The notes under the pieces are model-generated. The model was not told the origin of the DNA and ran no database searches. It saw only the letters and a list, made by a program, of their open reading frames with translations. From Candidatus Omnitrophota bacterium (lineage in GTDB: Bacteria; Omnitrophota; Gorgyraeia; Zapsychrales; Zapsychraceae), in assembly GCA_003528115.1 (NCBI GenBank), contig DOGZ01000014.1:166081-230080 (forward strand): a DNA stretch of 64,000 nucleotides, given 5' to 3'. Below, piece by piece: positions 38,575 through 62,221 of the stretch. The position numbers and the translations under genes are program-made. Positions within the stretch are counted from its first letter, which is position 1, and the number at the start of each line of letters is the position of its first letter.

Positions 38575-40224
38575 TTGATCAATTTGATGATTTCAAAAAA
38601 AAATCTTCCGTCTCCAAAATTCTTTTCCACGCGCCCATTCCTCCTTTCCGCGATTTTGTTGTTTTTTTTGTGTCTTCTTGCTTACAGCAATTGTTTCCGG
38701 CATGGTTTTCTCCTGGATGATTATACGCATTTGCTCAATGAGGATAATTTGGAGAAAGTTACATGGGCAGAACTTTTTTCTAAGGCGTACAAGGGATTTT
38801 ACAGGCCGTTCGCCTTTATGTTTCTTAAAGGCATGCTGGGGGTGTTTAAAGACGCGGGCGTCGCGTATCACGTTTTTAACTTAATCCTTTTTTATGGGAT
38901 ATGCTTGATGTTTTACAGATTATGGATCGAATTATTCAAAGATCAGCGTTTGGCTTTGCTTGCCTGTTCTCTCTTCGCGGCCCATCCGGTGAATGCCATG
39001 CTGGTGAATTATAAGACGGCGAGTAACAACAGTATCTTCATTTTGTGTATGCAGATGAGCGCGTGGCTGCTGGTGAAATCTATGGATGCGCGAAAGACAG
39101 GATATTATTACGCGAGTTTATTGTTTTATTTCTTAAGCCTTCTGTCCCACGAAATTAGTTTTATTCTGCCGGTGTATCTCTTTCTTATTTTATTTCTCCT
39201 AAGGGATTACGGAGGGAAGAAAAGCGGGGTGTCTTGCTTGTCTTTTTTGGTTCCTTTGACGGTATATTTAATTATTCGACGGAATATCGCCGGTCTCAGC
39301 CCCATGGCCGATCCTTTTCATCTGGGGATCAGTTTTATTCAATACGTTGGAACCTTGATGTCGTTAATAGGGTGGTATCTCCAAAAACTGGTCGTCCCCG
39401 TGAATATTTTGTTTATTTGGGATGAGCGCATCGCTGAAGGAGGAACGGCGGTTTTTTATGCCGTTTTCTTGATGATGGTGGTGGCCGTTGTTGCTGGTGT
39501 CCTTTACAGGAGAAGACCGGGGGACGTGAAAACTTTTGGCGCTGGGCTCTTGGCCGCAGGATTTATTCCCTTGGGGTTGGCCGGTTTTACGTACTCGGCC
39601 AGTATGAAGACGGTTATTATTGAACCGCATTGGTTCGGCTTTTCTTCGATGGGTTTTTTCCTTCTGGCCGCCGGCATCTTAATAAATCTCAGGAAATTCG
39701 CGCATGAGAAAATCCGGATCCCGGCCTTAGTTATTCTATTGGGAACGCTTTTGCTGTTGACCAGAACAGGCAACGCTGTCTGGAAAGACGAAGAGACCTA
39801 CTGTACCAATTGGATCGAAACAAATGCCTTAAACGGTGAGCCCTGGAATTGTTTGGCGAGGGTTTACAGAGCCAAGCATGATCAAGGTTTAAATAAGAAC
39901 AGATATCAAGACTGCACGGAGGCCGCTTATTTGGCGTTTGCGTATCATGTGACGGGAGACGGTACGCGGTCGTTGAATTATTACAATATGGCCTTAGACA
40001 TTAACCGTGATTGTCCGGTTGCCTATTATGGTCTGGGGCTATTATATACTATCGCTCAGGATGAGGGGTCAGCCGCGTGGGCGTATGATAATGCCCTGCG
40101 CCTGAATCCGGGGTATTACCCTCTGGTCAAGAAACTGGAAGACGTTTTTTACAATCGCCGGAAAAAGGATGCGGCCCGAAGAATCAGAGAACTTTTTTTG
40201 TCGGAGTCTTTCAAGGGGCCGTGA
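38575..40224 (+). CDS. Polytopic membrane protein with DD motif in first periplasmic loop and C-terminal TPR repeats (GT-C fold, PMT/TMTC-like glycosyltransferase candidate)
   Basis: About 11 TM helices are present. FLLDDYTHLL follows TM1. The C-terminal ~150 aa are TPR-like. It is a paralogue of the 60569 gene. Confidence 0.45.
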   Translation: MINLMISKKNLPSPKFFSTRPFLLSAILLFFLCLLAYSNCFRHGFLLDDYTHLLNEDNLEKVTWAELFSKAYKGFYRPFAFMFLKGMLGVFKDAGVAYHVFNLILFYGICLMFYRLWIELFKDQRLALLACSLFAAHPVNAMLVNYKTASNNSIFILCMQMSAWLLVKSMDARKTGYYYASLLFYFLSLLSHEISFILPVYLFLILFLLRDYGGKKSGVSCLSFLVPLTVYLIIRRNIAGLSPMADPFHLGISFIQYVGTLMSLIGWYLQKLVVPVNILFIWDERIAEGGTAVFYAVFLMMVVAVVAGVLYRRRPGDVKTFGAGLLAAGFIPLGLAGFTYSASMKTVIIEPHWFGFSSMGFFLLAAGILINLRKFAHEKIRIPALVILLGTLLLLTRTGNAVWKDEETYCTNWIETNALNGEPWNCLARVYRAKHDQGLNKNRYQDCTEAAYLAFAYHVTGDGTRSLNYYNMALDINRDCPVAYYGLGLLYTIAQDEGSAAWAYDNALRLNPGYYPLVKKLEDVFYNRRKKDAARRIRELFLSESFKGP

Positions 40225-40256
40225 TAGTTCATGCGTAATCCCTCTGTTTTGTAAGC

Positions 40257-40285
40257 TTGTCAAGAGACATCCGGTTGACTATAAT
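40257..40285 (+). promoter_or_regulatory. Sigma70 promoter candidate TTGTCA-N17-TATAAT upstream of the SDR / radical-SAM operon
   Basis: It has a 5/6 match at -35, a perfect -10 and an ideal 17-nt spacer. It lies 72 nt upstream of ATG 40357. Confidence 0.45.
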
Positions 40286-40356
40286 AAGGCCGTCAAAATT
40301 CCATCCAAGATTTTTCTAAAGAATTAACTTTTGGAAAAACCCGTTCGAATCGATTT

Positions 40357-41178
40357 ATGCCTCCAACGCAGATTAAACACTCCTTTCCGTCTTTTGCCGC
40401 GTGGTACGCGGGGAAGAGCGCTTTGGTCACGGGTGCAACGTCGGGCATCGGGAGGGAGATGGCAAGATTATTGATTCGTTATGGGGCCAGAGTCGTGTTT
40501 TGCGGTCGTGAGGAAACGGCGTTAAAATCGCTTGACGAAGAATTAAAAACGCAATCAACGATTCCCCCCGAAGGATTTTGCGTGGATTTGTCCCAGCCGG
40601 ATTCTTTGAAGTCCTTCATCCATAAAATTCGTCAAAAGTATACCATTGACATCCTTGTCAACAATGCCGGGCTGGGATATATGGGGGATTTCTGCAATAT
40701 GCCGGAGAAAATGCTTTTGTCCCTGCAGGACGTGAATATGGCCGCGGTTGTCCGTTTATGCCATGCCTTTTCTTCTGACATGAAAGAGAGGCCGGGGACG
40801 GGGATATTGAATGTCGGTTCCGTCGCGTCCTTTTTCCCGACACCAGGTTCAGCGTTATATGGCGCCACAAAACATTTTATTCTGGGTTTTACCGATGCCT
40901 TGCATCAAGAGATGGCGCCTTTTCAGGTGCATGTCAGTGGTGTTTATCCGGGAAAGACCGCTTCCAGATTTCTGGAACGGGCGACCGAAGGAAGATTGAA
41001 GGTGTGGGAAAAGTCGTCCAGACCCGAAGATGTGGCCCGGCTGGGACTTCAAGGCTTAATGAAAAATAAGATTAGGACCATTCCTGGTTTGGATAATCAG
41101 ATAAAGGTTTTGATGGCTTCTGTTTTACCGGTTTCCTTCACTCTGAGAAAAATGGCAGCCCGCCATCCGCGTCAGTAA
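40357..41178 (+). CDS. Short-chain dehydrogenase/reductase (SDR)
   Basis: Motifs are ALVTGATSGIGREMA, NNAG and the catalytic YGATK. Confidence 0.8.
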   Translation: MPPTQIKHSFPSFAAWYAGKSALVTGATSGIGREMARLLIRYGARVVFCGREETALKSLDEELKTQSTIPPEGFCVDLSQPDSLKSFIHKIRQKYTIDILVNNAGLGYMGDFCNMPEKMLLSLQDVNMAAVVRLCHAFSSDMKERPGTGILNVGSVASFFPTPGSALYGATKHFILGFTDALHQEMAPFQVHVSGVYPGKTASRFLERATEGRLKVWEKSSRPEDVARLGLQGLMKNKIRTIPGLDNQIKVLMASVLPVSFTLRKMAARHPRQ

Positions 41179-41218
41179 ATGTGCTTTTTTTGAAATGCGA
41201 GTGGGGCATTAGTTTTAA

Positions 41219-41445: not shown

Positions 41446-41508
41446 GTATTTAAGGTTACCCATGTGTAATTTCAAAGAACCGAAAATATAATCAAAGGTT
41501 ATGGACAG

Positions 41509-42618
41509 ATGAAGATCAACAGATGGACACGGTGGATACAAACGTTTCATTATCCCTCGTATTTTATATTTTTTGTGACCGCCCGCTGTAACGCCCGATG
41601 TCCGATGTGCTTTTATATGGAGAATATGGAAAGCAACGCGGCGAAGCGGGAGTTGAGGGTCGAGGAATATGAAAAGATCAGTCGCAGTATCCCATTGATC
41701 AATATCCTGGGTATTTCCGGCGGGGAACCGTTCTTGAGAGAGGATTTGCATGAGATTGTTCAGGTGATGTATAAAAACTGCTCGCCCTGGGTTGTTGATC
41801 TGCCGACCAATGGCTTTTTAACAAAAAGCGTGCTCAAACAGGTGGAAGAGATCGCACGGCGTTGTCCGGATATGGTGGTGGATCTCCAGCTTTCCATAGA
41901 CGGGCCGCCGGAGATCCATAATCAGATCCGAGGGCTTAAGGATGGGTTTGGCCGTATGCGCGAGACCTATCTGGGCTTGGTGGCGCTCAAGAAACGCTAC
42001 AGGAATTTGAAGGTCAAGGCCTGCGTGGTGTATTCGCATTATAACCAGGATCATATAGAGCCATTATTCGACATGCTTCACAGCGATTTTACGGATTTGG
42101 ACAGAATCGTTTTCTCCGTGGCGCACGGAAGCGTCTACAACGATGAAGCCATGGCTTTTGATTGGGAAAGGTATTTCAAGAACTGCGCGCGGATCCGAGA
42201 GGCGTCGACAGTAAAAGACATTAAAGATCTGCATTCGATTTTTACGATAGCCTTGAGAATTGTCAAAAATGATTTGCTTAAAGAGATCCTCCGGAAAAAA
42301 AATATGGTTCAATTATGCGGGGCCGGTCAAAAGGTTGTTGTGATTAATGAGCTTGGTCAGGTGTTTCCTTGTGAACCGCTATGGCGGCCCGTGGGGGATT
42401 TGACAAAGAATGGGTATGACCTGAATCAAATCCTTCGATCTGAGGCCATGAAACAATTCCAGGATCAAATCGTCCGGGAGAAATGCAACTGCCATTGGGG
42501 GCTGCCGATGTCCACCGCGCTCATTTATAGTCCCAGGTATTATCCGAAGATTTTGTTTGAAATGACAAGGATCTTATCCAGGAGTTTATTCCGCTCAAAA
42601 AAAATGGAAAACTTCTAA
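41509..42618 (+). CDS. Radical SAM enzyme with C-terminal SPASM/twitch-like Cys cluster
   Basis: The motif is CNARCPMC (CxxxCxxC). A GGEP-like ISGGEPFL is present. C-terminal cysteines occur in CGAGQ…PCEP…CNCHWG. Confidence 0.8.
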   Translation: MKINRWTRWIQTFHYPSYFIFFVTARCNARCPMCFYMENMESNAAKRELRVEEYEKISRSIPLINILGISGGEPFLREDLHEIVQVMYKNCSPWVVDLPTNGFLTKSVLKQVEEIARRCPDMVVDLQLSIDGPPEIHNQIRGLKDGFGRMRETYLGLVALKKRYRNLKVKACVVYSHYNQDHIEPLFDMLHSDFTDLDRIVFSVAHGSVYNDEAMAFDWERYFKNCARIREASTVKDIKDLHSIFTIALRIVKNDLLKEILRKKNMVQLCGAGQKVVVINELGQVFPCEPLWRPVGDLTKNGYDLNQILRSEAMKQFQDQIVREKCNCHWGLPMSTALIYSPRYYPKILFEMTRILSRSLFRSKKMENF

Positions 42619-42645
42619 ATTAAGAGGTTTTTCCCCGGGGGTTAC

Positions 42646-44124
42646 TTGAGAATTTTATTGATGTATCCGCAATATACGCACGGCAATGAATTTGACTCCA
42701 GAGCCCCATCCATGTCTCTTGTTTATTTGGCCGCGGTTCTGGAACGCGACGGACATCAGGTGACGGTCTACGATGCCTCGCTCGGGCCCATTGTCAGGAC
42801 GGGACATGTCTATCGTTACGGCTTCTCGGATGAGGATGTCCGTCAATATCTCACGGAGGCGAAATATGATTTTGTCGGGATAACGTGTTCCTTCACCTCC
42901 CGCTGGCGGTTTGTGGATAAGATCGCCCGTTTGGTCAAGGACGTGACGCCGGATGTCCCCGTGGCCATCGGCGGTTTATTTCCAACGTCTGAATGGGCCT
43001 ATTGCTTGCAAGAATGCGCGGCGGTTGATCTTATTTTATTGGGGGAAGCGGAATTGACCTTTTCACGGATAGTTCAGAATATGGCAGGAGGGAGCCGGGT
43101 CTCTGAGGCCTGCCGAGATGCCGACGGTGTGGCGTGGAGGTCAGACAATGAAATCCGGTATAATCCCAAAACGACGTATAATGAGCGTCTGGATGATTTG
43201 CCTTTTCCCGCCTGGCATCTGGTTGACCTTGAACGGTATTTTAAACTCCAGAAAAAGATTTTTGAATTGCCCGTTCCCTGCCTGCCCGTCTTATCCTCCC
43301 GCAGTTGTCCGATGGGGTGCACGTTTTGCAACATGTATGTCACCCACGGTCGCGCCTGGCGGCCCCGTTCTCCGGAGAATGTGCTTGATGAACTGGAATA
43401 TGTGATAAAGCGGTTTGGTGTCCGTCATTTTTATTTTGTCGACGATAATTTTAGTCTGCGCAGCGACAGGGCGAAAAAAATATGCCGCGGCATCCTTGAG
43501 CGAAGACTGAAGATAAAATATAATTTCCACAACGGTTTAAGCATCAAGACCCTGGATGAGGAACTGATTAAAGGGCTGAAGGATTCCGGATGCACCAGTG
43601 TGTGCCTCGCTGTGGAGTCGGGAAGCGAACGCGTCCGCAATCAAGTGTACGGGAAGGGATTAAAAACAGAAAAAATTTTTCAGGTTTTTAACTGGTGTCG
43701 CCGGGTCGGTATTCCGACCATCGGTTATTTTATGGTCGGCGCTCCGGGAGAAACAAGGAAGGATTTTGAGGAAACCAAAGCGCTTGTCGCCAAACTTCCC
43801 ATGAGTCTGGCCACCGTCGGCATTTATACGCCGTATCCCAAGACCGCCTTATATGACCAAAGCAAAGAAAAGGGATGGTTGATTGAGCCGCCGCCAGAGG
43901 ATGAAAACCGGGTGGAGATGTGCTCTGTCATGCTGCGCACACCTGATTTTGAACCGGAAGATGTCGCCGGGTGGCAAAAAGAATTATATTTTTGTTTCAT
44001 CCGGCATCATTGGCCGACACTTCTTCAGGAGTTCTTCCGGCCGTGGGGCGTCGTTAACGGGGACATGATTGGAAAGTTTTGGGGGATCATTAAATTCCAT
44101 TTTTTGAGTCGGAACAGGGCATAA
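42646..44124 (+). CDS. Class B radical SAM enzyme with N-terminal B12-binding-like domain
   Basis: The N-terminus RILLMYPQY…LVYLAAVLERDGHQVTVYD is Rossmann-like. The rSAM core is SSRSCPMGCTFCNMY. Confidence 0.8.
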   Translation: MRILLMYPQYTHGNEFDSRAPSMSLVYLAAVLERDGHQVTVYDASLGPIVRTGHVYRYGFSDEDVRQYLTEAKYDFVGITCSFTSRWRFVDKIARLVKDVTPDVPVAIGGLFPTSEWAYCLQECAAVDLILLGEAELTFSRIVQNMAGGSRVSEACRDADGVAWRSDNEIRYNPKTTYNERLDDLPFPAWHLVDLERYFKLQKKIFELPVPCLPVLSSRSCPMGCTFCNMYVTHGRAWRPRSPENVLDELEYVIKRFGVRHFYFVDDNFSLRSDRAKKICRGILERRLKIKYNFHNGLSIKTLDEELIKGLKDSGCTSVCLAVESGSERVRNQVYGKGLKTEKIFQVFNWCRRVGIPTIGYFMVGAPGETRKDFEETKALVAKLPMSLATVGIYTPYPKTALYDQSKEKGWLIEPPPEDENRVEMCSVMLRTPDFEPEDVAGWQKELYFCFIRHHWPTLLQEFFRPWGVVNGDMIGKFWGIIKFHFLSRNRA

Positions 44125-44131: not shown

Positions 44132-45184
44132 ATGAAGAAATACGTTAATTATATGACGACCCTTATGAAAGGGCATTGGCTCCGGATCAATATGCCTATT
44201 CTGGTGACGCTCTGCGTGACCAATAGATGCAACCTCAAGTGTTTTTATTGTTACGAAGAATATTATGACAGGAATCACCGGGAATTTACGACGGAAGAAA
44301 TATTCAGGCTTATCGATGAGCTGGTTCAGATGGGGACCAAATATATTTCCATCGGAGGAGGGGAAGCTCTTTTAAGAAAAGACATTGGACAGATCGTTGA
44401 CAGGATCAAGCAGAGAAATATTTTATGCCATTTAAGCACAAACGGGTTGATTGTCAAAGATCATGTGCCGGTTTTAAAAAAGGTTGATTCTCTGGCAATT
44501 AGTATCGACGGCCGTTTGGAAAGTAATGACTTGAACAGAGGCAAGGGGACGTTTCGTAAACTCATCGAAGCCTTTGAGATCTTAAACAAAGAGAAGATTC
44601 AATTCCATTCCCACACGGTGCTGACGAGAAATAATAGCAATGCCGTCGAAGAGCTCATGGTTTTAGCCCGCGCCTATCATTTTCAAGCCCAGTTCAGCCC
44701 GTTGAGAGTTGAGGATTCTCCGGACAAAAGTCTTGGATTAGACGATATTCAGTTAAAAAAGATGATTCAAAAAATCCTAAAGCTTAAAAAACAGGGGGCG
44801 CCTGTTTTCTTCTCCGCCAAGACTTATGAAAACTTTTTGAACTGGCCGTTCCCGGCGTCGAAACAGTTCGTCTTTAATGAAAGTATTAAAGGCTATAAAC
44901 CCATCAAATGTTATATCAAGAATTTTGCCTGCCACATTGAGGCCAACGGTTTGGTCTATCCCTGCATTGTCTTAGTGAACAAATTCAAGGCGCTGAATCT
45001 TTTGGAGGTCGGTTTTCAGAAGGCATGGGAAAATTTGGCTGAAAACGGATGCCGGGCCTGCAATAATATTTGTTGTAATGACCTGAATCTTATCTTTGGT
45101 TTTAATCCCGATTCTATCTGGAATGCCCTGAAAATTGTCGTAGGTCGATTGACGGATAAATCAAGCGCTCCGTCTCTAAAATGA
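44132..45184 (+). CDS. Radical SAM/SPASM-domain enzyme
   Basis: Motifs are CNLKCFYC and GGGEALL. The SPASM cysteines are CYIKNFAC…PC…CRACNNICC. Confidence 0.8.
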   Translation: MKKYVNYMTTLMKGHWLRINMPILVTLCVTNRCNLKCFYCYEEYYDRNHREFTTEEIFRLIDELVQMGTKYISIGGGEALLRKDIGQIVDRIKQRNILCHLSTNGLIVKDHVPVLKKVDSLAISIDGRLESNDLNRGKGTFRKLIEAFEILNKEKIQFHSHTVLTRNNSNAVEELMVLARAYHFQAQFSPLRVEDSPDKSLGLDDIQLKKMIQKILKLKKQGAPVFFSAKTYENFLNWPFPASKQFVFNESIKGYKPIKCYIKNFACHIEANGLVYPCIVLVNKFKALNLLEVGFQKAWENLAENGCRACNNICCNDLNLIFGFNPDSIWNALKIVVGRLTDKSSAPSLK

Positions 45185-48092: not shown

Positions 48093-49136
48093 ATGCCGGC
48101 AAGTCCAGCGCGAGAAGTAGTTAGGTGGATAAAGACAACGCGGTTGTATGCCCGAGTCGGTCTGACAAGAATGAACCCTCGAAAGGCCTTTGTGATGCTG
48201 CGGTATTGGATCTTGACGCATCTCTTTAAGAAGGATATTCCCTGGCTGATTGAGTTTTCCGTGACCTACCGGTGCCAGGCCAGTTGCAAACATTGTTCTG
48301 TTTCCAATTATTTCCCCGAGGCGAATAAGTCCAAGGAGCTGTCCACGGAGAAGGTCAAAGACATTTTGAAGCAGGCGGTGACGCTGGGGATCCCTAAAAT
48401 TGACTTCTTCGGCGGCGAGCCTCTTTTGCGGGCGGATATCATTGAGCTGGTAACCTACGGTGAGGGGTTGGGATTATACACCTCCATCACTACGAACGCC
48501 TGGCAGTTGACGTATGAGAGGGTCAAACAGTTAAAAAAGGCAGGGATCAGTTGTATCAACGTGAGTATCGACAGTCCCCAGGCGGAAGAGCATGACCGAT
48601 CGCGCGGGGTCAAAGGGATGCATCAAAGGGCGGTGGAGGGAATCACCTATTGTCGTCAAGAAGGTATTCCGTGCATCGTCTCTACGTACGCCACACGTCG
48701 CCGGATTCAGAATTTCGCGGCCGGGGAAAAGGACGACAGTGTCTTGAGCGGTATTTTGAGGTTGTCCAGGAAACTGGAGGCCACAGGCGTGAGGATTTTA
48801 TTTCCGATCATTGCCGGGGAGTGGGTTAAGGCCAAGGAAAATGAATTTACCGATGAGGAAAAGCGGGGGATTATCGAGAACATCGATCCGTCTTTTGCCT
48901 TTATTGAGGGGGCCTACTCGGTTGTTAAAAAGAACAAGGTGTGTCAGGCGCTCAGCGGAAAGATGTTGAATATTTCTCCTTATGGCGATCTTCAGCTTTG
49001 TGTGGCTTTCACGAATACGTTTGGAAATGTGAAAGAACAGTCTTTGGAAACGTTGATGAAAGCCATGCGCAGACATCCCATTTATCAGAAGAATAAAGAC
49101 GGGAGCTGCTGCAGCACGACGGAATTAAAGGTGTAG
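48093..49136 (+). CDS. Radical SAM/SPASM-like enzyme
   Basis: Motifs are CQASCKHC and FGGEPLL. C-terminal cysteines are CQALSG…LCVAF…GSCCS. Confidence 0.8.
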   Translation: MPASPAREVVRWIKTTRLYARVGLTRMNPRKAFVMLRYWILTHLFKKDIPWLIEFSVTYRCQASCKHCSVSNYFPEANKSKELSTEKVKDILKQAVTLGIPKIDFFGGEPLLRADIIELVTYGEGLGLYTSITTNAWQLTYERVKQLKKAGISCINVSIDSPQAEEHDRSRGVKGMHQRAVEGITYCRQEGIPCIVSTYATRRRIQNFAAGEKDDSVLSGILRLSRKLEATGVRILFPIIAGEWVKAKENEFTDEEKRGIIENIDPSFAFIEGAYSVVKKNKVCQALSGKMLNISPYGDLQLCVAFTNTFGNVKEQSLETLMKAMRRHPIYQKNKDGSCCSTTELKV

Positions 49137-52529: not shown

Positions 52530-53298
52530 AGGGAAATACGCGTTGGTGACCGGGGGGACGCACGGGATCGGACGGGCGATTGCCCTGGCATTGGCCGATG
52601 AGGGATGTCATGTTGCGGTGTGTTCAAGAAGCAGGGAGCGTGTGGAGAAAACAAAACAGGAGCTCTCCGCCAAGGGCGTGCAATGTTTAGGGGTGGAAGC
52701 CGATGTCATGAAGGACTCTGATATCGAGAAGGTTATGAGTCTGGTCGGCAGACAATGGGGAACTCTGCATATTTTGATTAATAACGTCGGTGGCGGTGGC
52801 CGCTGGGGAAGTGAAATCGTTGAAGAGACCAAAGAGGAAACATGGCTGGAGGTCTACAACAAGAATGCCTTGGCCGCGATGAAATTTACTATGCGGACGA
52901 TCCCCTGGATGCGCAAGCAGAAATGGGGACGGGTTGTGACGATCACGTCGATCTTCGGCCGAGAAGCGGGCGGGCGGCCGTGGTTTACGATGGCCAAGAT
53001 GGCGCAGACGGCCTTGATGAAGACCCTGGCCAAGAAGGCGTATTTGATTCAAGACGGCATAACGTTTAACAGTGTCGCCCCCGGGGCCATTATGATCGCC
53101 GGGACGGGTTGGGAAAAAGAACTTAAGGAAAATCCCCGGCAGGTGCAGGATTTTATCCATGAAGAACTTCCTTTAGGCCGTTTGGGAACGCCTGAGGAGG
53201 TGGCCAACGCGGTTGTCTTCTTATGTTCGCAACAGGCGAGTCTGGTCAACGGCGCTTCGATTCCTGTGGATGGCGGACAGAGCATGAGTGTTCTTTAA
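52513..53298 (+). CDS. SDR-family oxidoreductase (FabG-like)
   Basis: Motifs are YALVTGGTHGIGRAIA and NNVG. It lies in the Y/K catalytic region. Confidence 0.8.
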   Translation: MDLGIKGKYALVTGGTHGIGRAIALALADEGCHVAVCSRSRERVEKTKQELSAKGVQCLGVEADVMKDSDIEKVMSLVGRQWGTLHILINNVGGGGRWGSEIVEETKEETWLEVYNKNALAAMKFTMRTIPWMRKQKWGRVVTITSIFGREAGGRPWFTMAKMAQTALMKTLAKKAYLIQDGITFNSVAPGAIMIAGTGWEKELKENPRQVQDFIHEELPLGRLGTPEEVANAVVFLCSQQASLVNGASIPVDGGQSMSVL

Positions 53299-54079: not shown

Positions 54080-55066
54080 ATGGGATTTTATGAGAAAAGA
54101 ACTGTCCTTGTTACGGGCGCCACAGGGTTGGTGGGGGCCAATCTGATTCAACGGCTGTTGCCCTTAGGCGTTCATGTCCGGGCCACGTTGCATCGCCGAG
54201 ATCCGGTCATTAGCGATCCTAAGATTGATTATATAAAGTGTGATTTGACCAATCCGGATGACTGCCGTAAGATTGTGCCGGAGGTGGATTATGTTTTTCA
54301 TTGCGCGGCTAATACTTCCGGGGCTCATGTGATAACGAACAACCCCCTGACGCATGTGACGACCAATATTGTGATGAACGCCTATCTTTTGGAGGCGGCT
54401 TATCAGGCGAAAGTCTTAAAATTTTTGTGGATCAGCAGTTCGACGGGATACCCATCGACCGGCACCCGTCCCATGAAGGAAGAAGAAATGATGGTCGGCG
54501 ATCCTTTTGACAAATATTTCGGTGTTGGATGGATGAAAAGGTATTCAGAAGTCCTTTGCCGGATGTATGCCGAGAAGCTGAAAGTCCCCATGGCCACCAT
54601 CGTCTTGCGCGCGACCAATATTTACGGCGAATATGATGATTTTGATTTTGAAACATCCCATGCCTTCGCGGCGCTTATTAGAAAAGTCGCGCAGAGGCAT
54701 CGTCCGATTGAAGTGTGGGGCACGGGTGAGGACGTCAGGGATTTGATCTATGTGGGTGATTTCATTGAGGCGATGCTTATCGCCATGGAGAAATGTTACG
54801 GGTACAAGGTCTTTAATATCGGGTTTGGCCGAGGGTACAAAATCAAAGAAGTTCTCAATATGATCCTGGAAGAAGACGGTTATCATGATGCGCGCTTAAC
54901 CTTTGATGCCACCAAACCCACGACGATCCCGATCCGGCTGGTGGACATCCGTAAGGCGGAAAAAGAGCTTGGTTTTAAACCCAAGACTTTTCTGCGGGAA
55001 GGGATCCGGAAGACCTTGCATTGGTATAAGGCGCATCAAATGGAGAAAGCGGAGAAGGCGGCATGA
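54080..55066 (+). CDS. NAD-dependent epimerase/dehydratase family (NDP-sugar modifying)
   Basis: The Rossmann motif VLVTGATGLVGANL is present. The SDR-extended fold length is 328 aa. Confidence 0.8.
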   Translation: MGFYEKRTVLVTGATGLVGANLIQRLLPLGVHVRATLHRRDPVISDPKIDYIKCDLTNPDDCRKIVPEVDYVFHCAANTSGAHVITNNPLTHVTTNIVMNAYLLEAAYQAKVLKFLWISSSTGYPSTGTRPMKEEEMMVGDPFDKYFGVGWMKRYSEVLCRMYAEKLKVPMATIVLRATNIYGEYDDFDFETSHAFAALIRKVAQRHRPIEVWGTGEDVRDLIYVGDFIEAMLIAMEKCYGYKVFNIGFGRGYKIKEVLNMILEEDGYHDARLTFDATKPTTIPIRLVDIRKAEKELGFKPKTFLREGIRKTLHWYKAHQMEKAEKAA

Positions 55067-56688
55067 AGGTATCCATTCAAGAAACCCCGTCACACCTGCC
55101 TCGGTCCGAGGCCTTCGCCGGGGGGAGAAAAGTTCCTTCATTGAAAACAAAAGAGGACCGTGTGGATGTGGTGTTTATTTATCCCAAGACGGGGATAGAT
55201 TTAGGCGCTACGATCGGCCCGCCGCACGCCCTATTATCTGTGGCGGCGCCTCTTTTAAAAAAAGGATTCAAAGTCAAGATTGTCGATCAACGCACGGACG
55301 CGCATTGGCGTGAAACCTTAAGCGGGATGTTGGCGCAAAGGCCGATTTGTGTCGCGTTGACCTCCATGACCGGCACGCAGATTTATTTCGCGTTAGAAGC
55401 CGCTAAACTTGTGCGAGAAGTCTCCAACGGAAAGATCCCTATTGTCTGGGGCGGGGCGCATCCGTCCAGCCTTCCGGAACAGACTTTGAAAAGCGAATAT
55501 GTGGATGTGGTGTGTATCGGCGAAGGGGATATCACGTTCTTGGAATTGGTGCAGGTGTTGGCGAATAAAGAACCGTTGGATCAGGTCAAAGGGATTGTCT
55601 TTAAAGACGGCGTCAAAATGACCATGACTCCGGGCCGGCCTCTGCTGGACGTGGAGACACTCCTGCCCGTGCCGTGGGAATTGGTGGACGTTGAAAAATA
55701 TATCCACAGGGATTTCTACCTGAAAGAAACCCGGCGGAGTCTGGATATCGGCCAGACCTCGCGGGGGTGTCCATTTCAATGCGGATTTTGTTCAAGCGCC
55801 GCGTTGCGCCACAGGCAGTGGCGTCCCATGTCGGTCAAGAGATCTCTGGAGATGATCCTCGAACCGGTCAAGAGATTCCATCTGGATGGTATTTGGATTC
55901 GGGATGATGAGTTTTACATCGACCGGGAGCGGGCCTACGAGATCTGTCAGGGCATTATTGACAGCGGCGTTAAAATCAAATGGTATACTTCTGGGACGCG
56001 GGTAAATATTTTTAATATGGCCACGGACAAAGACCTCGATATCCTCAAAAGAAGCGGCGCCGACACATTGAAGTTTGGGGCCGAATCCGGCTCGAACAGG
56101 ATTTTAAAATTGATGAAGAAAGGGATCCGTTGTGAGGATACCATTGAGGCGAATCTCAAGGCCAAGAGACACGGCATTATCCCTGTCTTTGCCCTCATGA
56201 TTGGATTTCCAACGGAAACATTTGAAGATATCGACAAAACGATTGATCTGTTTGTCCGGTTAAAGAAGGATAATCCCAAGGCCCAGTTTGAAATTATAGG
56301 AACATTTACGGCCATGCCCCAGACGCCGCTTTACGAGGTGGCTTTACAGCACGGGTTACATCCTCCGCAATCGTTGGAAGGCTGGATTGATTGGCTTTCG
56401 GATGAGTATGATATGGAAGGAAAAAAAATCCCGTGGTTTAACGCTTCGGAGAGAAAGAAGATCGGTAACATCACTTATATGAGCCTTTTGGCCAACAGTT
56501 CTTTGAACGCGATCGGCGGGGTTTCTAACAATGCTATGAGGCTTCTCTTAAAATTGTTTATTAGTCCGCTGAGCCGGTATGAGGGGTATAAACTCAGAAG
56601 AAAGTTGTATGGTTTTTCTCCGGAACTGGATTTCATGCGGTTTCTGCGACGAAAAGTCTTTTACAGGCGGAATCAGAGTATTCATTAG
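55063..56688 (+). CDS. Class B radical SAM enzyme with N-terminal B12-binding-like domain
   Basis: The N-terminus VDVVFIYPKTG…LLSVAAPLLKKGFKVKIVD is present. The rSAM core is GQTSRGCPFQCGFCSSA. It has an ATGA overlap with the epimerase. Confidence 0.8.
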   Translation: MKVSIQETPSHLPRSEAFAGGRKVPSLKTKEDRVDVVFIYPKTGIDLGATIGPPHALLSVAAPLLKKGFKVKIVDQRTDAHWRETLSGMLAQRPICVALTSMTGTQIYFALEAAKLVREVSNGKIPIVWGGAHPSSLPEQTLKSEYVDVVCIGEGDITFLELVQVLANKEPLDQVKGIVFKDGVKMTMTPGRPLLDVETLLPVPWELVDVEKYIHRDFYLKETRRSLDIGQTSRGCPFQCGFCSSAALRHRQWRPMSVKRSLEMILEPVKRFHLDGIWIRDDEFYIDRERAYEICQGIIDSGVKIKWYTSGTRVNIFNMATDKDLDILKRSGADTLKFGAESGSNRILKLMKKGIRCEDTIEANLKAKRHGIIPVFALMIGFPTETFEDIDKTIDLFVRLKKDNPKAQFEIIGTFTAMPQTPLYEVALQHGLHPPQSLEGWIDWLSDEYDMEGKKIPWFNASERKKIGNITYMSLLANSSLNAIGGVSNNAMRLLLKLFISPLSRYEGYKLRRKLYGFSPELDFMRFLRRKVFYRRNQSIH

Positions 56689-56704: not shown

Positions 56705-58174
56705 TTGAATCCAAAAATTATCCTCGCCACGGTAAATTCGAAAAGGGATCTTTATGCCGCGACAACGGATGAGTTTTCAGCCGTTGCTCCGAATATTCAG
56801 ATGGGGCTCTTGGCGTCTTACGTGAAGTCCCGGGGTATCGATGTCGAGATCATCGAATCCGACGTGGATATGATCTCGATGGATCAACTGCTGGATATCG
56901 CCCAGAAGAAGAGTCCTACGCTTTTGGGGATCATTTGTTCAGGGGCCAATCCCTCTTCCTCCACCATGGTCATGGCGGGTATCGTGGATTTCTTTGAGAG
57001 GTTTCATCAAAGGAAGATGAATGTCAAGACATTCATTTGGGGGCCGCATCCGACGGTTCTTCCGGAGAGGTCGTTAAAGGAAACGGGCGCGGATTTTGTG
57101 GTCAGAGGCGAAGGGTACACAACCATCGTTGATCTGTTTCACGCTTTGCGGGACGGCGGAGATTTGGAGAAAATCAGCGGCCTGGCTTATTGCGTTAAGA
57201 ACGGGGCGGTTCAAGAGCCGGCTGTGATTGTGACACAAGACACCCCTTTGATCAAAGATCTTGACAGCCTGCCGCCGGTTGACTGGGACGTTATGCGTCC
57301 GTCCCGTTATCGGGCGCATAACTGGCATTGTTTCGGAGATCTCCATCATCGAACGCCCTATGCTATTCTCTGGACCAGTTTCGGATGTCCGTTCCCCTGT
57401 AATTTTTGTTCCATCAATAATCTCTTCGGTAAAAGGACTCAACGGTTTCGCAGCGTTGACCGCGTGATTGACGAAATCAGCTTGCTGGTTCAAAAATACA
57501 AGGTTAAACATATCAAGATATTGGATGAATTATTTGTGGTTAACTCTAAAAGAATAGATGAATTTTGTGACAAGCTCGAGGTCAAAGGATTTGACTTGAA
57601 TATGTGGGCGTATTCCAGGGTGGATACGATCAGCCGGCCTTTGCTTAAAAGGCTCAAGAAGGTCGGGATGAATTGGATCTCGTACGGATTTGAATCCGCG
57701 ACACCGGAGATTTTAAAGACGGCGGATAAAGGGAATCAAAAGACGGATGTGGATCAGGTGATCCGTATGACCCAGGAGGAAGGGGTCTCGATATGCGCGG
57801 ACGTCATGTTCGGTTTGGAGGGCGAGAATGAAGAGACGATGAACCGCACGTATGATTTCCTTGTTAAATACAATTTTGAATGGGCGAATATTTATCCGGT
57901 CTTTGCTTATCCGGGGACGAAATTCTTTCGAGAAGTCGAGCCTCCGAAGAACTGGAAGGCTTATTCCCTTTACGGGTATGAATGCGCGCCGATGGCAACG
58001 AAATATCTTACCTCCAAAGAGGTGCTCAAATTCCGTGATGAGGCCTTTGTCCGTTATCATGGCCGTCCGGAATACCTGTGGATGATCGAGAAAAAATTTG
58101 GGGTCGATACCAAGGAACATATCTTAAGAATGATCGCCATTCCCTTGAGAAGAAGGTTATTGGAGAATGAGTAG
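56705..58174 (+). CDS. Class B radical SAM enzyme with N-terminal B12-binding-like domain
   Basis: The probable start is TTG 56705 (LNPKIILATVN…), preceded by agagg. The B12-like domain reads MGLLASYVKSRGIDVEIIESD. The rSAM core is WTSFGCPFPCNFCSINN. The ORF track starts earlier, at 56579. Confidence 0.75.
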   Translation: MNPKIILATVNSKRDLYAATTDEFSAVAPNIQMGLLASYVKSRGIDVEIIESDVDMISMDQLLDIAQKKSPTLLGIICSGANPSSSTMVMAGIVDFFERFHQRKMNVKTFIWGPHPTVLPERSLKETGADFVVRGEGYTTIVDLFHALRDGGDLEKISGLAYCVKNGAVQEPAVIVTQDTPLIKDLDSLPPVDWDVMRPSRYRAHNWHCFGDLHHRTPYAILWTSFGCPFPCNFCSINNLFGKRTQRFRSVDRVIDEISLLVQKYKVKHIKILDELFVVNSKRIDEFCDKLEVKGFDLNMWAYSRVDTISRPLLKRLKKVGMNWISYGFESATPEILKTADKGNQKTDVDQVIRMTQEEGVSICADVMFGLEGENEETMNRTYDFLVKYNFEWANIYPVFAYPGTKFFREVEPPKNWKAYSLYGYECAPMATKYLTSKEVLKFRDEAFVRYHGRPEYLWMIEKKFGVDTKEHILRMIAIPLRRRLLENE

Positions 58175-60572
58175 AATCTGTGACAGCAAAATGAAGGTAT
58201 TTTGCTGGGTCGCGTTTTTATATAGTCTTATTTATTTATTCTTAATAGGACAACACCGCCTCCCCATCGACCACGACACCTTTCAATATCTCCAGCAGCA
58301 ATACGTCTATTTTAACGAGGTTGTTCAAAACCGCTCTTTACCCTACTGGCTTCCCTATTATATCCATGGTTATGTGGGCAATTATCAATTTCTTCCTCAG
58401 TTAACTTTGCTTTCACCGGTCTTTTATGGGCTGGGGTTAATTTCGGATCAATGGAACTATCTTTATTTGTATTATTTTGGGTTGTGGTTTGAAGAGCTTT
58501 TTTTCCTGTTAGGCATTATCTTACTGGCCACTCTTTATTATAAAAACTTAAAAACAATCCTCTATGTGTCCATCACCCTGCTGGGGACAAACATCTGGTA
58601 TCCACAGATCTGGTGGAATTTTCATATTTATTATTTCATTCCTATCGTCTTGTATTGCCTGCACAGGGCTTTAACCAAAGGCCTTTTTCGCTACGTGATT
58701 GGAGCGGTGCTTTTTTTTGCCTTGGCTGTTTACGGGAATTTTCTGTATTGCGGCGTCTTTGTCGCGTTTGTTGTGGGGGTGTATTTTCTGTTTCTTGTTC
58801 CAGTCTATTTTAAAAAGAGATCTTACCTGGAAGGCTTGGCCGGATTCAGCCGACACAGTCCTGTCTTGAACATTCTTAAAAAGTTATTCGTCTTATATTT
58901 TTATGTATTTTTGTATCAGGGGATCAAAACCCTTTGGATGAGAAAGAAGATCCTTTGGTACACCGTTGTCTTTATGGGTTTGATTGGCCTGATGGCGGTG
59001 AGTTTTTATTATGTCAAGTACGGTGATCATGAACTGGCCTATTTGTATAACACGCGGGACGCGAGCGGGAAAATCGCTATTAATACATTTTTGAATTACG
59101 GCGGATCCCTGGGGTGGGGCAAATTCGGGGAGATTTTTCAGAGATACGGCAATTCGGTTGACCTCAATTTGTACGCGGGGTTCTGTGTTCTGCCTTTTGT
59201 ATTCCTGGCTTTATTGTTTAGCCGTCGGAAAATGTCTTATGTGGTGGGCGGCACGGCGCTCGTGATTTTGCTTTTCAGCGCCGGTACGGGAGTGGCGCAG
59301 GCGTTTTATTATGTGTTTCCTTTAGGAAAGGTTTTTCGTCATATCGGTTTAACGGCGAGCGTGTTTAAGCTGTTTATGGTTTTGTATGCCGGTTTTGGAT
59401 TCGAAATTTTTCTTAAACGTTTGGAACACGATCGAAGGATGGTTTTCGTTGTTGGCGCGTTCTTAATTCCTTTGCTATGGACATTGCGGAAGGTTTATGT
59501 GTTGAATCCAGAGCGATTCTGGTTTGTGTCCCAGGCGGAACAAGCCGTTTTCGCGAAGATCCCCTATGTTCTGGTGGGCGGGCTTTTCTTGGTGTTTTTG
59601 TATTGGATGATAAGCAGGGAAGGAAGGCGGCGCGACCTTCTTGTGAGCGGGCTGCTGGTCTTGATTTTCATGGATCTTTTTTCTTACAAGTATTCCCTCA
59701 TTGTCGCGCGCATGCCGAAGGTTTCAAAAGAAGTGATCAGTCTTTTTAAACCGTTTAAATACGCCTTTCCTTTGGGGCGTCTTTTAACGACGGAATCGCA
59801 CGCGGCCTATAGTGACAGAGTTAAGAAATTCTTGCCGCTTATGCGTCATAATCCTCAATTGACGAAATATAATACGATCGATTCTTTTCTGTTCGCGGAT
59901 TCATTTGTTTCAAGTTATCGGGTGGATTTTATCTTAAATTCCATCAAGGATTATTTTTCCGCGCGTGAACTTTTCCCCGGGGAAGAGATTTATAGAAAGT
60001 ATTCCGGTGTCGGAACGCCGAAACTTGGTGTTTTCTCAAAGATTAACGAAGTGGAGAATCACGATGCCGTCGGAAGAGTTTTTCGGCAACCCGGTTTCAG
60101 CGGGGATATGATTTTCGTGGCCGCTGAGGAAATCAGGAAGTTGGAAGGAAAAATCCCTGAGGCGCTTATCCAGCGTCAGGATATGCGGGACTTCCAAAAC
60201 CGCAATGAACGATTGGGGGGAGAGCTTACGATCAAGCAGTTTTCTTTTAATTCTCTTGTTTTGATATCCTCCGTTCCAGGACGTTCCGATCAGCCCTGTT
60301 TTCTCTATTACGCCGACGCCTATCATCCTCATTGGCAGGCGTACGTTAACGGGAAAAAAGTCCCGGTGATGAGGGTCAATATTGGGTATAAAGCTATTCC
60401 TATTCCGTATGGAGAAGCCCAAATTGTTTTTAAGTTCGGTAATCTTTTTTATCCCCTTTCATTTCTTTGCACGTTGTTGATGAGTACGGCAATTTTGTTC
60501 GCTATTCTTTACGTTTTCTTTACGGAGATGATCTCTTACCGTAAAAAAGTTGTTGTGAAAGAAATCACATGA
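58167..60572 (+). CDS. YfhO-like polytopic membrane protein (N-terminal ~14 TMs, extracytoplasmic domain, terminal TM); GT-C-type glycosyltransferase candidate
   Basis: It is 801 aa with YfhO-like topology. A C-terminal TM helix FLCTLLMSTAILFAILYVFF is present. It overlaps the upstream gene by 8 nt. Confidence 0.5.
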   Translation: MSRICDSKMKVFCWVAFLYSLIYLFLIGQHRLPIDHDTFQYLQQQYVYFNEVVQNRSLPYWLPYYIHGYVGNYQFLPQLTLLSPVFYGLGLISDQWNYLYLYYFGLWFEELFFLLGIILLATLYYKNLKTILYVSITLLGTNIWYPQIWWNFHIYYFIPIVLYCLHRALTKGLFRYVIGAVLFFALAVYGNFLYCGVFVAFVVGVYFLFLVPVYFKKRSYLEGLAGFSRHSPVLNILKKLFVLYFYVFLYQGIKTLWMRKKILWYTVVFMGLIGLMAVSFYYVKYGDHELAYLYNTRDASGKIAINTFLNYGGSLGWGKFGEIFQRYGNSVDLNLYAGFCVLPFVFLALLFSRRKMSYVVGGTALVILLFSAGTGVAQAFYYVFPLGKVFRHIGLTASVFKLFMVLYAGFGFEIFLKRLEHDRRMVFVVGAFLIPLLWTLRKVYVLNPERFWFVSQAEQAVFAKIPYVLVGGLFLVFLYWMISREGRRRDLLVSGLLVLIFMDLFSYKYSLIVARMPKVSKEVISLFKPFKYAFPLGRLLTTESHAAYSDRVKKFLPLMRHNPQLTKYNTIDSFLFADSFVSSYRVDFILNSIKDYFSARELFPGEEIYRKYSGVGTPKLGVFSKINEVENHDAVGRVFRQPGFSGDMIFVAAEEIRKLEGKIPEALIQRQDMRDFQNRNERLGGELTIKQFSFNSLVLISSVPGRSDQPCFLYYADAYHPHWQAYVNGKKVPVMRVNIGYKAIPIPYGEAQIVFKFGNLFYPLSFLCTLLMSTAILFAILYVFFTEMISYRKKVVVKEIT

Positions 60573-62221
60573 AGGATTCCTGGAAGAGGACTCTCCTGGC
60601 CGGGGGACGGCCGTATGTCTGGATTATTCTGACGGGATTTGTATTGTATGCCAAGACATTGTTTTACGGGATCACGTATCTGGATGATAGTTCCTGGCTC
60701 CTCGATTATCAGTACTTCCTCAAGAATCTCTCCAATATCGGTCTTTTGTTTTCCCGGCCGGATTTCCTGACGCCGATCTTCTACCGTCCTGTTTTGGGAC
60801 TCTCTTTTATGCTGGATGCCCAAGGAAGCGGGAGCTCGCCGTTCGGGTATCATCTGACGAATGTCTGCATTCATTTGATCAATGCCTGTCTGGTCTTTGC
60901 ATTATTTATGAGACTTGGATACAGGCGGGGATTGAGTTTCTTTTTCGCCCTTGTATTTACGGTTCACCCAGGGCTGACCATGGCCGTGGCCTGGATTCCG
61001 GGGAGGACGGATTCTTTGTTGGGTCTTTTTGTCCTGGCATCGTTTATTTTCTTTCTTCATTATTTTGAACGGAAGAATTGGCTGAGCCTCGTCACTCATT
61101 TAGTGTTTTTGCTTTTGGGATTTTTGACCAAAGAAACGGGTTTTGTTATGCCGGTGATATGTTTTTTATATATCTGGCTTATCGATACTCCTGAGGGGAA
61201 GAAGAAAAAGGATTATGGGCTGTGGTTCGGTTGGGCCATGGTGTTGGGCGGGTGTTTAATTTTTAGAAAAATGATATTGAAAGGGCAGTTCTCCGATGCC
61301 GGAGTGGTGTGGGCGATGAAGTCCATTCACCAGGATGTGTCCGGGTTTATTTTTTATTTGGGAAAGGCCATTCTGCCTTTGACGCTATCCGTCGTTCCTA
61401 TCCGTCCGGACGTGAAATTAACGTCGGGCATAGTCTCGTTGATGATTTTGGTTCTTGTCATCCTGGTGGGGAGAAAGAAACGGATGAATCATGTCTTCTT
61501 TGGTCTCATCTGGTTTTTTCTTTTTCTTATACCGGGGGTCATTCATTACTTTGTCATTCATGAGTACAGAGTTTACTTGCCGCTCATCGGCTGTTTGATC
61601 GTCTTCATGGAAGGGATCAACGTTGGGCTTTCGGACATTCAGCCATCCCATAATAGAAAAGTCTTATTTCTTTCGGCGGGTTTTATTATCCTTCTGTTTT
61701 CGATGACCTTTATCCAAAGCCGTCATCTCAAAAACGGATTGGCCTTTTGGCGCAACGCGGTCAAGACATCACCGAGTTATCCTTTGGCGCATCGCAATCT
61801 CGGGGCGATGTATTATTTTGAAAACAGGATGGACGAAGCCGAAGCGGCGTATAAAAAATCTTTGGAACTGAATCCGTATGAACCCATGGTCCATAATAAT
61901 CTGGGTATTATTTATATGAATAAAAATAAAGACCAGGAAGCGGAAAAGGAATACAAAACGGAGATTGCCATTAATCCCGGATTTGAAAAGGCGTATGCCA
62001 ATCTGGCCCTGCTTTATTACCGCAAGGGGCGGCCCCATGAGGCGGTTTTTTTATGGAAGAAAACCATCGACTTAAATCCGAATTATTTTGAGGCCTATTT
62101 AAGTCTGGTTATTTATTATATGGAGCAAGGACAGCGTGAGAGGGCCGTTGATTACGTTGAGCAAATGCAGAAAAGAGGGGGTGTTGTCCCGGTTGAAATA
62201 CTCCGGCAGTTACATCTTTAG
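60569..62221 (+). CDS. Polytopic membrane protein with DD motif after TM1 and C-terminal TPR repeats (second PMT/TMTC-like GT-C candidate)
   Basis: ITYLDDSSWLLDY follows TM1. About 11 TM helices are present. The C-terminal TPRs read AHRNLGAMYY…AYANLALLYY…. It has an ATGA overlap upstream. Confidence 0.5.
   Translation: MKDSWKRTLLAGGRPYVWIILTGFVLYAKTLFYGITYLDDSSWLLDYQYFLKNLSNIGLLFSRPDFLTPIFYRPVLGLSFMLDAQGSGSSPFGYHLTNVCIHLINACLVFALFMRLGYRRGLSFFFALVFTVHPGLTMAVAWIPGRTDSLLGLFVLASFIFFLHYFERKNWLSLVTHLVFLLLGFLTKETGFVMPVICFLYIWLIDTPEGKKKKDYGLWFGWAMVLGGCLIFRKMILKGQFSDAGVVWAMKSIHQDVSGFIFYLGKAILPLTLSVVPIRPDVKLTSGIVSLMILVLVILVGRKKRMNHVFFGLIWFFLFLIPGVIHYFVIHEYRVYLPLIGCLIVFMEGINVGLSDIQPSHNRKVLFLSAGFIILLFSMTFIQSRHLKNGLAFWRNAVKTSPSYPLAHRNLGAMYYFENRMDEAEAAYKKSLELNPYEPMVHNNLGIIYMNKNKDQEAEKEYKTEIAINPGFEKAYANLALLYYRKGRPHEAVFLWKKTIDLNPNYFEAYLSLVIYYMEQGQRERAVDYVEQMQKRGGVVPVEILRQLHL

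Follow-up and report, generated by a model that had tools for sequence, protein, structure and literature searches.

The subject of this study is a gene cluster in a 64,000-nucleotide stretch of DNA (the window) from an uncultured Candidatus Omnitrophota bacterium (assembly GCA_003528115.1, contig DOGZ01000014.1, positions 166,081 to 230,080 of the forward strand). The window is identical to groundwater metagenome contigs. A first-pass annotation, made from the sequence letters alone, had recognized at this locus a family 2 glycosyltransferase (GT2) and three membrane proteins resembling glycosyltransferases of the GT-C fold, namely a YfhO-like protein (P) and two proteins with tetratricopeptide repeats (TPRs), A and Q, and had proposed that they glycosylate proteins or the envelope with a sugar tailored by radical S-adenosylmethionine (radical-SAM) enzymes. 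All three membrane proteins held up as GT-C-like, but the count was one short, as a fourth (F) lies in the middle of the radical-SAM cluster and had been overlooked. The genes for GT2, A, P and Q are intact open reading frames (ORFs) on the + strand at the coordinates first given for them, and all genes between 35221 and 63020 are tightly packed on that strand (Table 1). The cluster contains seven radical-SAM enzymes, four B12-binding and three with a SPASM domain, and no further paralogue of A/Q, P, F or GT2 was found within the window. Taken together, the data suggest that this cassette is, with somewhat better than even likelihood, a GT-A plus GT-C envelope glycosylation system of Omnitrophota for an unusual sugar tailored by the seven radical-SAM enzymes.

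Table 1. Features of the cluster and its flanks, in their order along the window
Feature	Position	Strand	Remarks
ABC ATPase, ABC-2 permease and GldG-like "ABC_transp_aux" protein	35221-38573	+	Upstream neighbour of A; GldG-like protein has a ~430-aa periplasmic domain
A, TMTC/PMT_2-like GT-C membrane protein with short C-terminal TPR tail	38575..40224	+	Likely start 38587 (545 aa)
Sigma-70-like promoter match, TTGTCA-17-TATAAT	40257..40285	+	11/12, consensus match only; between A and SDR1
SDR1, short-chain dehydrogenase	40357..41178	+	adh_short E 5e-45
Hairpin, ~225 nt	41219-41445	+	In the 330-nt gap between SDR1 and radical SAM/SPASM enzyme 1
Radical SAM/SPASM enzyme 1	41509..42618	+	Pfam/NCBIfam matches
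B12-binding radical SAM enzyme 1	42646..44124	+	B12-binding and Radical_SAM domains; top NCBIfam match a Sden_1168-type methyltransferase (208 bits, under its cut-off)
Radical SAM/SPASM enzyme 2	44132..45184	+	Pfam/NCBIfam matches
F, GT-C-like, 969 aa	45181..48090	+	Fold matches and profile alignment to PMT clan
Radical SAM/SPASM enzyme 3	48093..49136	+	Pfam/NCBIfam matches
B12-binding radical SAM enzyme 2	49182..50714	+	Pfam/NCBIfam matches
Split transketolase-like thiamine-diphosphate enzyme	50716..52529	+	N subunit 50716-51531, C subunit 51528-52529; Transketolase_N, Transket_pyr, Transketolase_C
SDR2, short-chain dehydrogenase	52513..53298	+	Domain match
GT2, putative polyprenyl-phosphate sugar synthase, 231 aa	53383..54078	+	Called start 53389; Glycos_transf_2
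NAD-dependent sugar epimerase/reductase (Fcl-like)	54080..55066	+	Epimerase E 5e-47; top match GDP-L-fucose synthase (Fcl model 155 bits, under its cut-off)
B12-binding radical SAM enzyme 3	55063..56688	+	Pfam match
B12-binding radical SAM enzyme 4	56705..58174	+	Called start; ORF opens at 56579
P, predicted GT-C enzyme, YfhO-like architecture	58167..60572	+	AlphaFold model, fold search, C-terminal YfhO homology
Q, TMTC-like PMT_2 GT-C, at least 4 C-terminal TPRs	60569..62221	+	Start codon overlaps P stop (ATGA)
Ub-Mut7C and Mut7-C RNase-domain protein	62136-63020	+	Overlaps Q 3' end by ~40-85 nt
SurA/PpiD-like parvulin chaperone gene	63047-64000	-	Convergent to Mut7-C gene

The extent of the cassette was judged from synteny in 37 genomic loci encoding relatives of P, plus the loci of P, F and A homologues, all searched with every protein of the cluster. 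Some of these loci are not independent: L005 and L012 are on the same contig, L004 and L007 share a contig, and L006 and L014 may stem from one species or from close relatives. Candidatus Omnitrophota is the source of nearly all close homologues of the membrane proteins. Wherever the relative of P is at least ~33% identical, a block made up of the two transketolase subunits, SDR2, GT2, the epimerase, one or two B12-binding radical-SAM enzymes and P is kept in this order (L004-L006, L011-L015 and L017-L019; about nine loci besides the window, including a Geobacterales metagenome-assembled genome). In about nine other loci, 3-5 kb separate the GT2 gene from P, and in L022 and L025 the linkage is looser. 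F was found only inside radical-SAM/transketolase clusters, in L007, in L048 (two tandem copies) and on a Desulfobacterales contig (L049), and compact versions of the cluster without F occur in L006, L013 and L015. SDR1 is adjacent to the first SPASM enzyme in L007, L013 and L048. A- or Q-like genes stand beside P in just three places: the window, L017 and, with weak similarity, L018. The order of the block and the placement of F together indicate that the conserved core consists of GT2, P, usually F, and the tailoring enzymes. The GT2, radical-SAM, transketolase and SDR genes are thus genuinely linked to a GT-C enzyme, and the association of GT-C genes with the radical-SAM cluster in other genomes was borne out for P and F but not for the TPR proteins. 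Related loci also carry genes for a GHMP kinase, a nucleotidyltransferase, aminotransferases and further glycosyltransferases, and these extra sugar-nucleotide and glycosyltransferase genes support a glycan pathway.

P itself gave no Pfam, NCBIfam or PDB sequence match, and the profile of its family (35 homologues found) gave none against PDB either. Its AlphaFold model, with a predicted local distance difference test (pLDDT) of 85 and a predicted template modelling score of 0.88, consists of a helical membrane module (residues 4-512), a periplasmic beta-rich domain of ~250 aa (515 to 757-765) and a terminal helix (761-789). When this model was compared with PDB using Foldseek, the top 11 matches were PglB, EmbA/B/C, ArnT and then AftD and AftA, all of which are GT-C enzymes. 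Because a confident model matches only GT-C enzymes at the top of the fold search, P is predicted to be a GT-C enzyme, as the first-pass annotation had expected of its structure. A motif just after the first transmembrane (TM) helix, H36-D37-T38, is invariant in a 30-sequence alignment down to 22% identity, and crude hydropathy with the positive-inside rule places its loop on the outer face, the flanking loops on the inner side being K/R-rich. The label YfhO-type holds for the overall architecture and the C-terminal domain. Pfam YfhO (PF09586) was matched by 8 of 30 members of the P family, only over the last ~90 positions (~737-835) of the 835-position model; its gathering score of 28.5 bits was exceeded by two of four rescanned relatives, always by the C-terminal part only; and hhalign of the P family against a YfhO-annotated protein aligned 73 C-terminal columns only (98% probability). 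The label does not extend to the membrane module or to a Pfam match of P itself. From its model, P is therefore best described as YfhO-like in architecture and C-terminal domain, with a catalytic module that is not demonstrably of the YfhO family. The YfhO topology used in this comparison comes in part from PMC8035078. Profile comparisons of P with F (probability 2%) and with A/Q (50%) gave nothing convincing.

F likewise has no Pfam, NCBIfam or PDB sequence match. Its family is rare, with 20 homologues in 90% clusters and ~22 representatives at E<=1e-30 among 1.84 billion 50% clusters. The protein is laid out as an N-terminal signal anchor, a beta-sandwich (~37-262), a membrane module of the PMT clan (~283-776) and a C-terminal soluble domain, and the first outer loop carries an invariant D411-G412-x-x-D415. 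The model and the topology place both the beta-sandwich and this acidic loop in the periplasm. The structural model has a pLDDT of 67, with 70-90 in the membrane core, and its top fold matches are STT3A, Stt3, PglB, PIG-M, AftA and Pmt4. The weak tail of an exhaustive search with F consisted of proteins of 600-700 aa, which matched PMT_2 in 11/18 and PMT in 8/18 cases; hhalign of the F profile against these relatives gave a probability of 99.9% (E 4e-35, 597 columns), with D415 aligned to their invariant Asp. The alignment to the A/Q profile was weak (E 8e-4) and topologically sensible, the DGSGD region falling on the DD motif of A and Q described below. These profile and fold matches suggest that F is a divergent, PMT-clan GT-C-like enzyme. 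One homologue, P0048 (1294 aa), carries a fused F5/8 type C domain. In the rearranged cassette of L048 (3815-12883; GCA_964365795.1, CAYIRL010000006.1), a P-like gene (762 aa) comes first, then a small F5/8 type C (discoidin) protein and then the two tandem F paralogues (980 and 960 aa). The fusion and this neighbour point to carbohydrate binding by the F module. A different variation is seen in L007/L004 (ERZ27256834 k141_1241403), an expanded cluster. Ahead of its GT2 are inserted another split transketolase, a DegT aminotransferase, a GHMP kinase and two proteins of 568 and 202 aa that have no annotation, and beyond P come another GT2 (323 aa), a radical-SAM protein of 639 aa and a set of WbpB/D/E-like amino-sugar genes.

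GT2 matches Pfam Glycos_transf_2 with E 8e-19. Its top NCBIfam matches are AglJ (E 2e-29), an archaeal dolichol-phosphate (Dol-P) hexose transferase (E 8e-24) and ArnC (E 9e-13), with PgfS and PpgS also present, and its closest solved structures in PDB are the Pyrococcus dolichol-phosphate mannose synthase (DPMS; 1e-11), ArnC (1e-9, three structures) and GtrB (2e-4). The sequence FSPDGNS is conserved in 13/13 homologues recovered from related loci. Since the nearest curated and solved relatives (AglJ, DPMS, ArnC and GtrB among them) are all polyprenyl-phosphate glycosyltransferases, the description of this protein as DPM1-like is fair. These relatives, together with the synteny, make GT2 a putative polyprenyl-phosphate sugar synthase.

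The two TPR proteins, A and Q, are related to each other as distant paralogues (BLASTP E 1e-6), and A has a 100% identical counterpart in Omnitrophica WOR_2 bacterium GWC2_45_7. The PMT_2 model (PF13231) has a gathering score of 26.1 bits. A reaches 31.4 bits, and Q is borderline, with 24.9 bits for the whole protein and 26.3 bits when only the membrane part (residues 1-384) is scored. A has about two TPRs (residues 450-513), and Q has strong ones at residues 380-540, matching TPR families down to E 5e-20. This agrees with the initial view of both as TPR-bearing PMT/TMTC-like proteins. An alignment of A, Q and 20 homologues (n=22, 17-44% identity) has exactly four invariant columns: both Asp of a DD motif, the Pro of YRP and the His of (A)VHP, which in A are D48, D49, P78 and H137. 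The corresponding residues in Q are D39-D40, Y72-R73-P74 and H133-P134. The first-pass annotation had let its proposal depend on the conservation of an acidic motif in loop 1 after the first TM helix of A and Q, and the DD motif proved invariant in all homologues aligned, down to 17% identity. In the human TMTC1-4 proteins, which have 11 TM helices and lumenal TPRs, loop 1 contains a strictly conserved DD and SHKSYRP, TM3 is of the LFAVHPIHT type, and the Lys of a KET(Q)xxT motif binds the donor phosphate (PMC7801869). Q keeps this last motif as K188-E189-T190, and A and its close orthologues have H192-E193 (SHE/AHE/CHE) at its place. Crude hydropathy, which visibly misses some segments, finds 9-10 of them in A and Q and, from the K/R-rich loops, puts the DD loop and the TPR tails outside. 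TMTC_DUF1736 (PF08409) was not matched by A or Q (E<=0.01) or by residues 1-384 of Q (E<=1), and was matched by 3/11 of their relatives (best 3.5e-10). In PDB sequence searches the profile of the A/Q membrane module found nothing and full-length A found TPR matches only. Judged by these motifs (DD, YRP and HP in both, KET in Q, HE in A), A and Q are most readily classed as TMTC/PMT_2-like GT-C proteins. By analogy with TMTC they may use protein acceptors, chosen through the TPRs. In another Omnitrophota genome (L009, GCA_015233405.1, 5246-15045), an A-like TPR/PMT_2 gene is immediately followed by a giant ORF (>2973 aa, extending past the end of the locus) that faintly matches CarboxypepD_reg and CLIPPER, and the product of this ORF is a possible surface-protein substrate of the A-like family.

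Whether the TPR proteins belong to the radical-SAM pathway is less certain, and the chance that they do not is only moderately below even. In that case A and Q would be independent housekeeping glycosyltransferases of the TMTC-like kind that use an ordinary lipid-linked sugar, and only GT2, P and F would act in the radical-SAM pathway. The synteny is compatible with this, as A/Q-like genes are not beside P in most related loci, and homologues of A have unrelated neighbours: a YfhO-annotated gene (L008), giant surface proteins (L009), or another GT2 with one radical-SAM gene (L010). In the window, A follows the ABC-2/GldG-like genes with a gap of 1-13 nt (the ORF starts ~2 nt, and the likely ATG 13 nt, after the GldG-like gene) and is followed by the promoter-like site, of a kind that is not more frequent in the region than in shuffled sequence, and further in by the long hairpin. 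A is therefore probably the last gene of the upstream operon, and this apparent translational coupling suggests that it works with the exporter rather than with the radical-SAM cluster. The observation that A and Q bracket the cluster is true by position, but the arrangement is not a conserved design. However, the start codon of Q overlaps the stop codon of P, which implies co-transcription. In addition, L017 has orthologues of both A (39%) and Q (42%) directly downstream of P, a different arrangement of the same partners, and PMT_2-type genes also occur near P in L018 and, 3 kb downstream of P, in L005. Q thus appears, from gene order, to be an operon-linked, lineage-specific accessory of the cassette.

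The preferred reading, an envelope glycosylation system with a radical-SAM-tailored sugar, leads to the following scheme. It builds on folds and families, conserved motifs and synteny, all of which were observed, whereas the identity of donor and acceptor, the direction in which the sugar is transferred and the set of enzymes that share a donor are inferred. In the cytoplasm, a sugar precursor would be tailored by the GDP-fucose-synthase-like epimerase/reductase, the two SDRs, the split transketolase-like enzyme and the four B12-binding and three SPASM radical-SAM enzymes. GT2 would then move the sugar onto polyprenyl phosphate, as its closest relatives and the synteny suggest, and a flippase would carry the lipid-linked sugar to the outer face. 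There P, with its outer-face His-Asp-Thr and large periplasmic beta domain, would pass the sugar to an envelope acceptor, and F would act on that donor or acceptor or on a related one. Q, as an accessory GT-C protein translationally coupled to P, may direct a lipid-linked sugar to proteins, and its paralogue A would more likely be a partner of the upstream ABC-2/GldG-like operon. The scheme allows tailoring on either the nucleotide sugar or the lipid-linked sugar. Precedents for the latter are ArnD and the mycobacterial conversion of decaprenyl-phosphoryl ribose to decaprenyl-phosphoryl arabinose (DPA).

Several results weigh against this scheme. The fold matches of P and F are statistically weak (P: probability 0.8-1.0, E 4e-3 to 6e-2, TM-scores 0.27-0.46; F: probability ~1, E 3e-2, TM-scores 0.3-0.46, a range given for P and F), and the C-terminal third of the F model is poor. 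Pfam YfhO does not match P even at E<=1, and the membrane module of P has no sequence similarity to the YfhO-annotated protein. Neither the cluster nor the 29 scanned window proteins outside it contain a flippase candidate of the GtrA or Wzx type, although in known transmembrane glycosylation systems the flippase gene is often elsewhere in the genome (PMC8035078). All matches of GT2 to curated families are far under the equivalog cut-offs; in its metal motif, S89-P-D91-G-N93 aligned to DAD-L-Q of DPMS/ArnC, Ser stands in place of the first Asp and Asn in place of Gln, with the second Asp retained; and hydropathy finds no hydrophobic segment or TM helix in its 231 aa, unlike the C-terminal TM anchors of GtrB, ArnC and the Pyrococcus DPMS. 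Finally, no result links the radical-SAM enzymes to sugars in particular as their substrates.

A rival reading concerns the product. If the cassette instead made a modified membrane lipid or another non-glycan, such as a radical-SAM-methylated or cross-linked lipid or a ribosomally synthesized and post-translationally modified peptide (RiPP), its large membrane proteins would be lipid-modifying enzymes, polymerases or exporters. Seven radical-SAM enzymes are indeed unusual for a sugar pathway, and the window contains no nucleotidyltransferase. Matches of the B12-binding enzymes include the lipid-acting HpnJ and HpnR and a ladderane-type lipid protein, and those of the SPASM enzymes include RiPP maturases, all under their cut-offs. 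However, the cassette always comes with a GT2, an NDP-sugar-type epimerase and GT-C-fold proteins, sugar-nucleotide and glycosyltransferase genes surround it in relatives, and both the fusion of an F homologue to the carbohydrate-binding F5/8 type C domain and the presence of such a protein next to F in L048 speak for a glycan, so that a non-glycan product is unlikely. Two specific versions of it were rejected: a RiPP, as no conserved precursor-peptide ORF was found and the one intergenic ORF present (41348-41491, 47 aa) falls within the long hairpin and lacks a conserved counterpart, and a hopanoid side chain, as the HpnH/I/J/A-like matches are all far under cut-off and no squalene-hopene cyclase or lipid-synthesis gene is present.

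It is similarly improbable that GT2 is a soluble enzyme whose acceptor is a small molecule or a glycan under assembly, with the donor for P and F coming from elsewhere, for although the missing TM helix, the Ser at the first Asp of the DXD motif and weaker matches to soluble GT-A enzymes (e.g. GpgS and an MftF-like family) would fit such a role, the AglJ, Dol-P-hexose transferase, DPMS and ArnC matches are much stronger, the archaeal Dol-P-hexose transferase model is likewise short (213 positions), human DPM1 also lacks TM helices, and the adjacency of GT2 to a GT-C gene is tight and conserved.

The neighbourhood of the cluster adds a few observations. The hairpin between SDR1 and the first SPASM enzyme is near-perfect, its 19-nt arm ends (CCTTAAGGGAATATGCCCG) being exact reverse complements (0 expected by chance), and its RNA fold has an energy of -124.7 kcal/mol (z = -6.9). 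It is present in a single copy in the window and has no Rfam match, a scan of 38000-63500 having found no RNA family. It could be a terminator or insulator, a palindrome resembling a miniature inverted-repeat transposable element, or a regulatory RNA. Upstream, 8283-27151 (+) holds a large set of genes resembling type IV pilus or type II secretion components, among them PilM/N/O-like, GspH-like and GspK-like proteins, a secretin (25181-27151) and several pseudopilins that carry the N-terminal methylation motif. In other bacteria, pilins are classic targets of O-glycosylation. In streptococci, the parvulin PrsA is modified by protein O-glycosylation of the YfhO type (bioRxiv 10.1101/2024.05.05.592596); the adjacency of the SurA/PpiD-like parvulin gene to the cassette may be coincidental.

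Conservation of the cassette extends across Omnitrophota and into Geobacterales and Desulfobacterales. If the glycosylation reading is correct, it implies new sugar chemistry (radical C-methylation or C-C extension of a carrier-bound sugar), a function for two new GT-C families, P and F, and a trait of the cell surface in a phylum that is largely uncultured. The members of this phylum are very small bacteria, possibly dependent on hosts, and their way of life is likely to centre on the cell surface. A more detailed version, offered tentatively and rather doubtful as a whole, is that the cassette makes an undescribed, heavily C-methylated and/or chain-extended sugar, tailored in part by radical-SAM enzymes on polyprenyl phosphate; that P, with its YfhO-like tail and novel membrane module, and F install it on the Omnitrophota surface; and that in some lineages TMTC-like TPR enzymes extend it to proteins. 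Q, as a bacterial TMTC-like protein with the complete eukaryotic motif set, could also be a tractable model for TMTC enzymology. Literature searches found no paper on this combination of GT-A/GT-C, radical-SAM and transketolase genes.

For a few simple sugars, namely glucose (Glc), N-acetylglucosamine, galactose, 4-amino-4-deoxy-arabinose and arabinofuranose, glycosylation in the periplasm by GT-A/GT-C pairs is well understood. The general kind of system is known, also from GtrB/GtrC, and what is uncharacterised is the coupling to seven radical-SAM enzymes and a transketolase, the divergent GT-C families of P and F, the occurrence of all TMTC motifs within a bacterial operon, and the host phylum. 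As in ArnC/ArnT and the mycobacterial DPA/Emb-Aft pathways, a GT2 or related enzyme would load a tailored sugar on polyprenyl phosphate and a PMT_2 or other GT-C enzyme would transfer it to an envelope glycolipid or polymer. SDR-type sugar tailoring is shared with the DPA pathway, where it takes place at the lipid-linked stage, and the best fold matches of P include ArnT, Emb and Aft, at a sequence identity of about 10-13%. However, the cassette lacks the aminotransferase, formyltransferase, deformylase and ArnE/F flippase of the ArnC/ArnT system, and its radical-SAM and transketolase enzymes have no counterpart in either pathway.

In Gram-positive bacteria, pairs of a GT-A and a YfhO or PMT_2 GT-C enzyme glycosylate teichoic acids, and multi-component systems (CsbB/GtcA/YfhO, GtlA/GtlB and Csd pairs) include variants with a cytoplasmic GT-A without a membrane anchor of its own (PMC8035078). 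The cassette resembles these in that the gene for a GT-A of the undecaprenyl-phosphate-sugar kind lies beside one for a multi-span, outer-face GT-C protein of the YfhO/PMT_2 type, and it resembles CsbB/YfhO in particular in the architecture and C-terminal domain of P. It differs in that the host is a diderm in which teichoic acids are not expected, that no GtrA flippase is nearby, that there are four GT-C genes instead of one, that the pair is set in a tailoring cluster of seven radical-SAM enzymes and a transketolase, and that the membrane module of P is not detectably YfhO by sequence.

The closest likeness for A and Q is to eukaryotic TMTC1-4 (PMC7801869), with which they share an N-terminal multi-span module followed by C-terminal TPRs, the loop-1 DD, YRP, (A)VHP in TM3 and, in Q, KET. 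Some of their relatives match TMTC_DUF1736, and their TPR domains are predicted to be non-cytoplasmic. Unlike TMTC1-4, they have no DUF1736 match of their own and far fewer TPRs, A has His for the Lys of KET, and the donor would be a bacterial polyprenyl-phosphate sugar. In the streptococcal Pgf system, the YfhO-family proteins PgfM1 and PgfM2 O-glycosylate proteins together with PgfS and the epimerase PgfE (bioRxiv 10.1101/2024.05.05.592596). That system differs in that it uses plain Glc or N-acetylgalactosamine, has no radical-SAM enzymes, and has Ser/Thr-rich disordered tails as acceptors, no counterpart of which was identified for the cassette. Nevertheless, Pgf and GtrB-PgtC2 parallel the cassette in combining a GT2, an epimerase and two GT-C proteins in one cluster with transfer outside the membrane, and Pgf demonstrates that YfhO-type enzymes can use protein acceptors.

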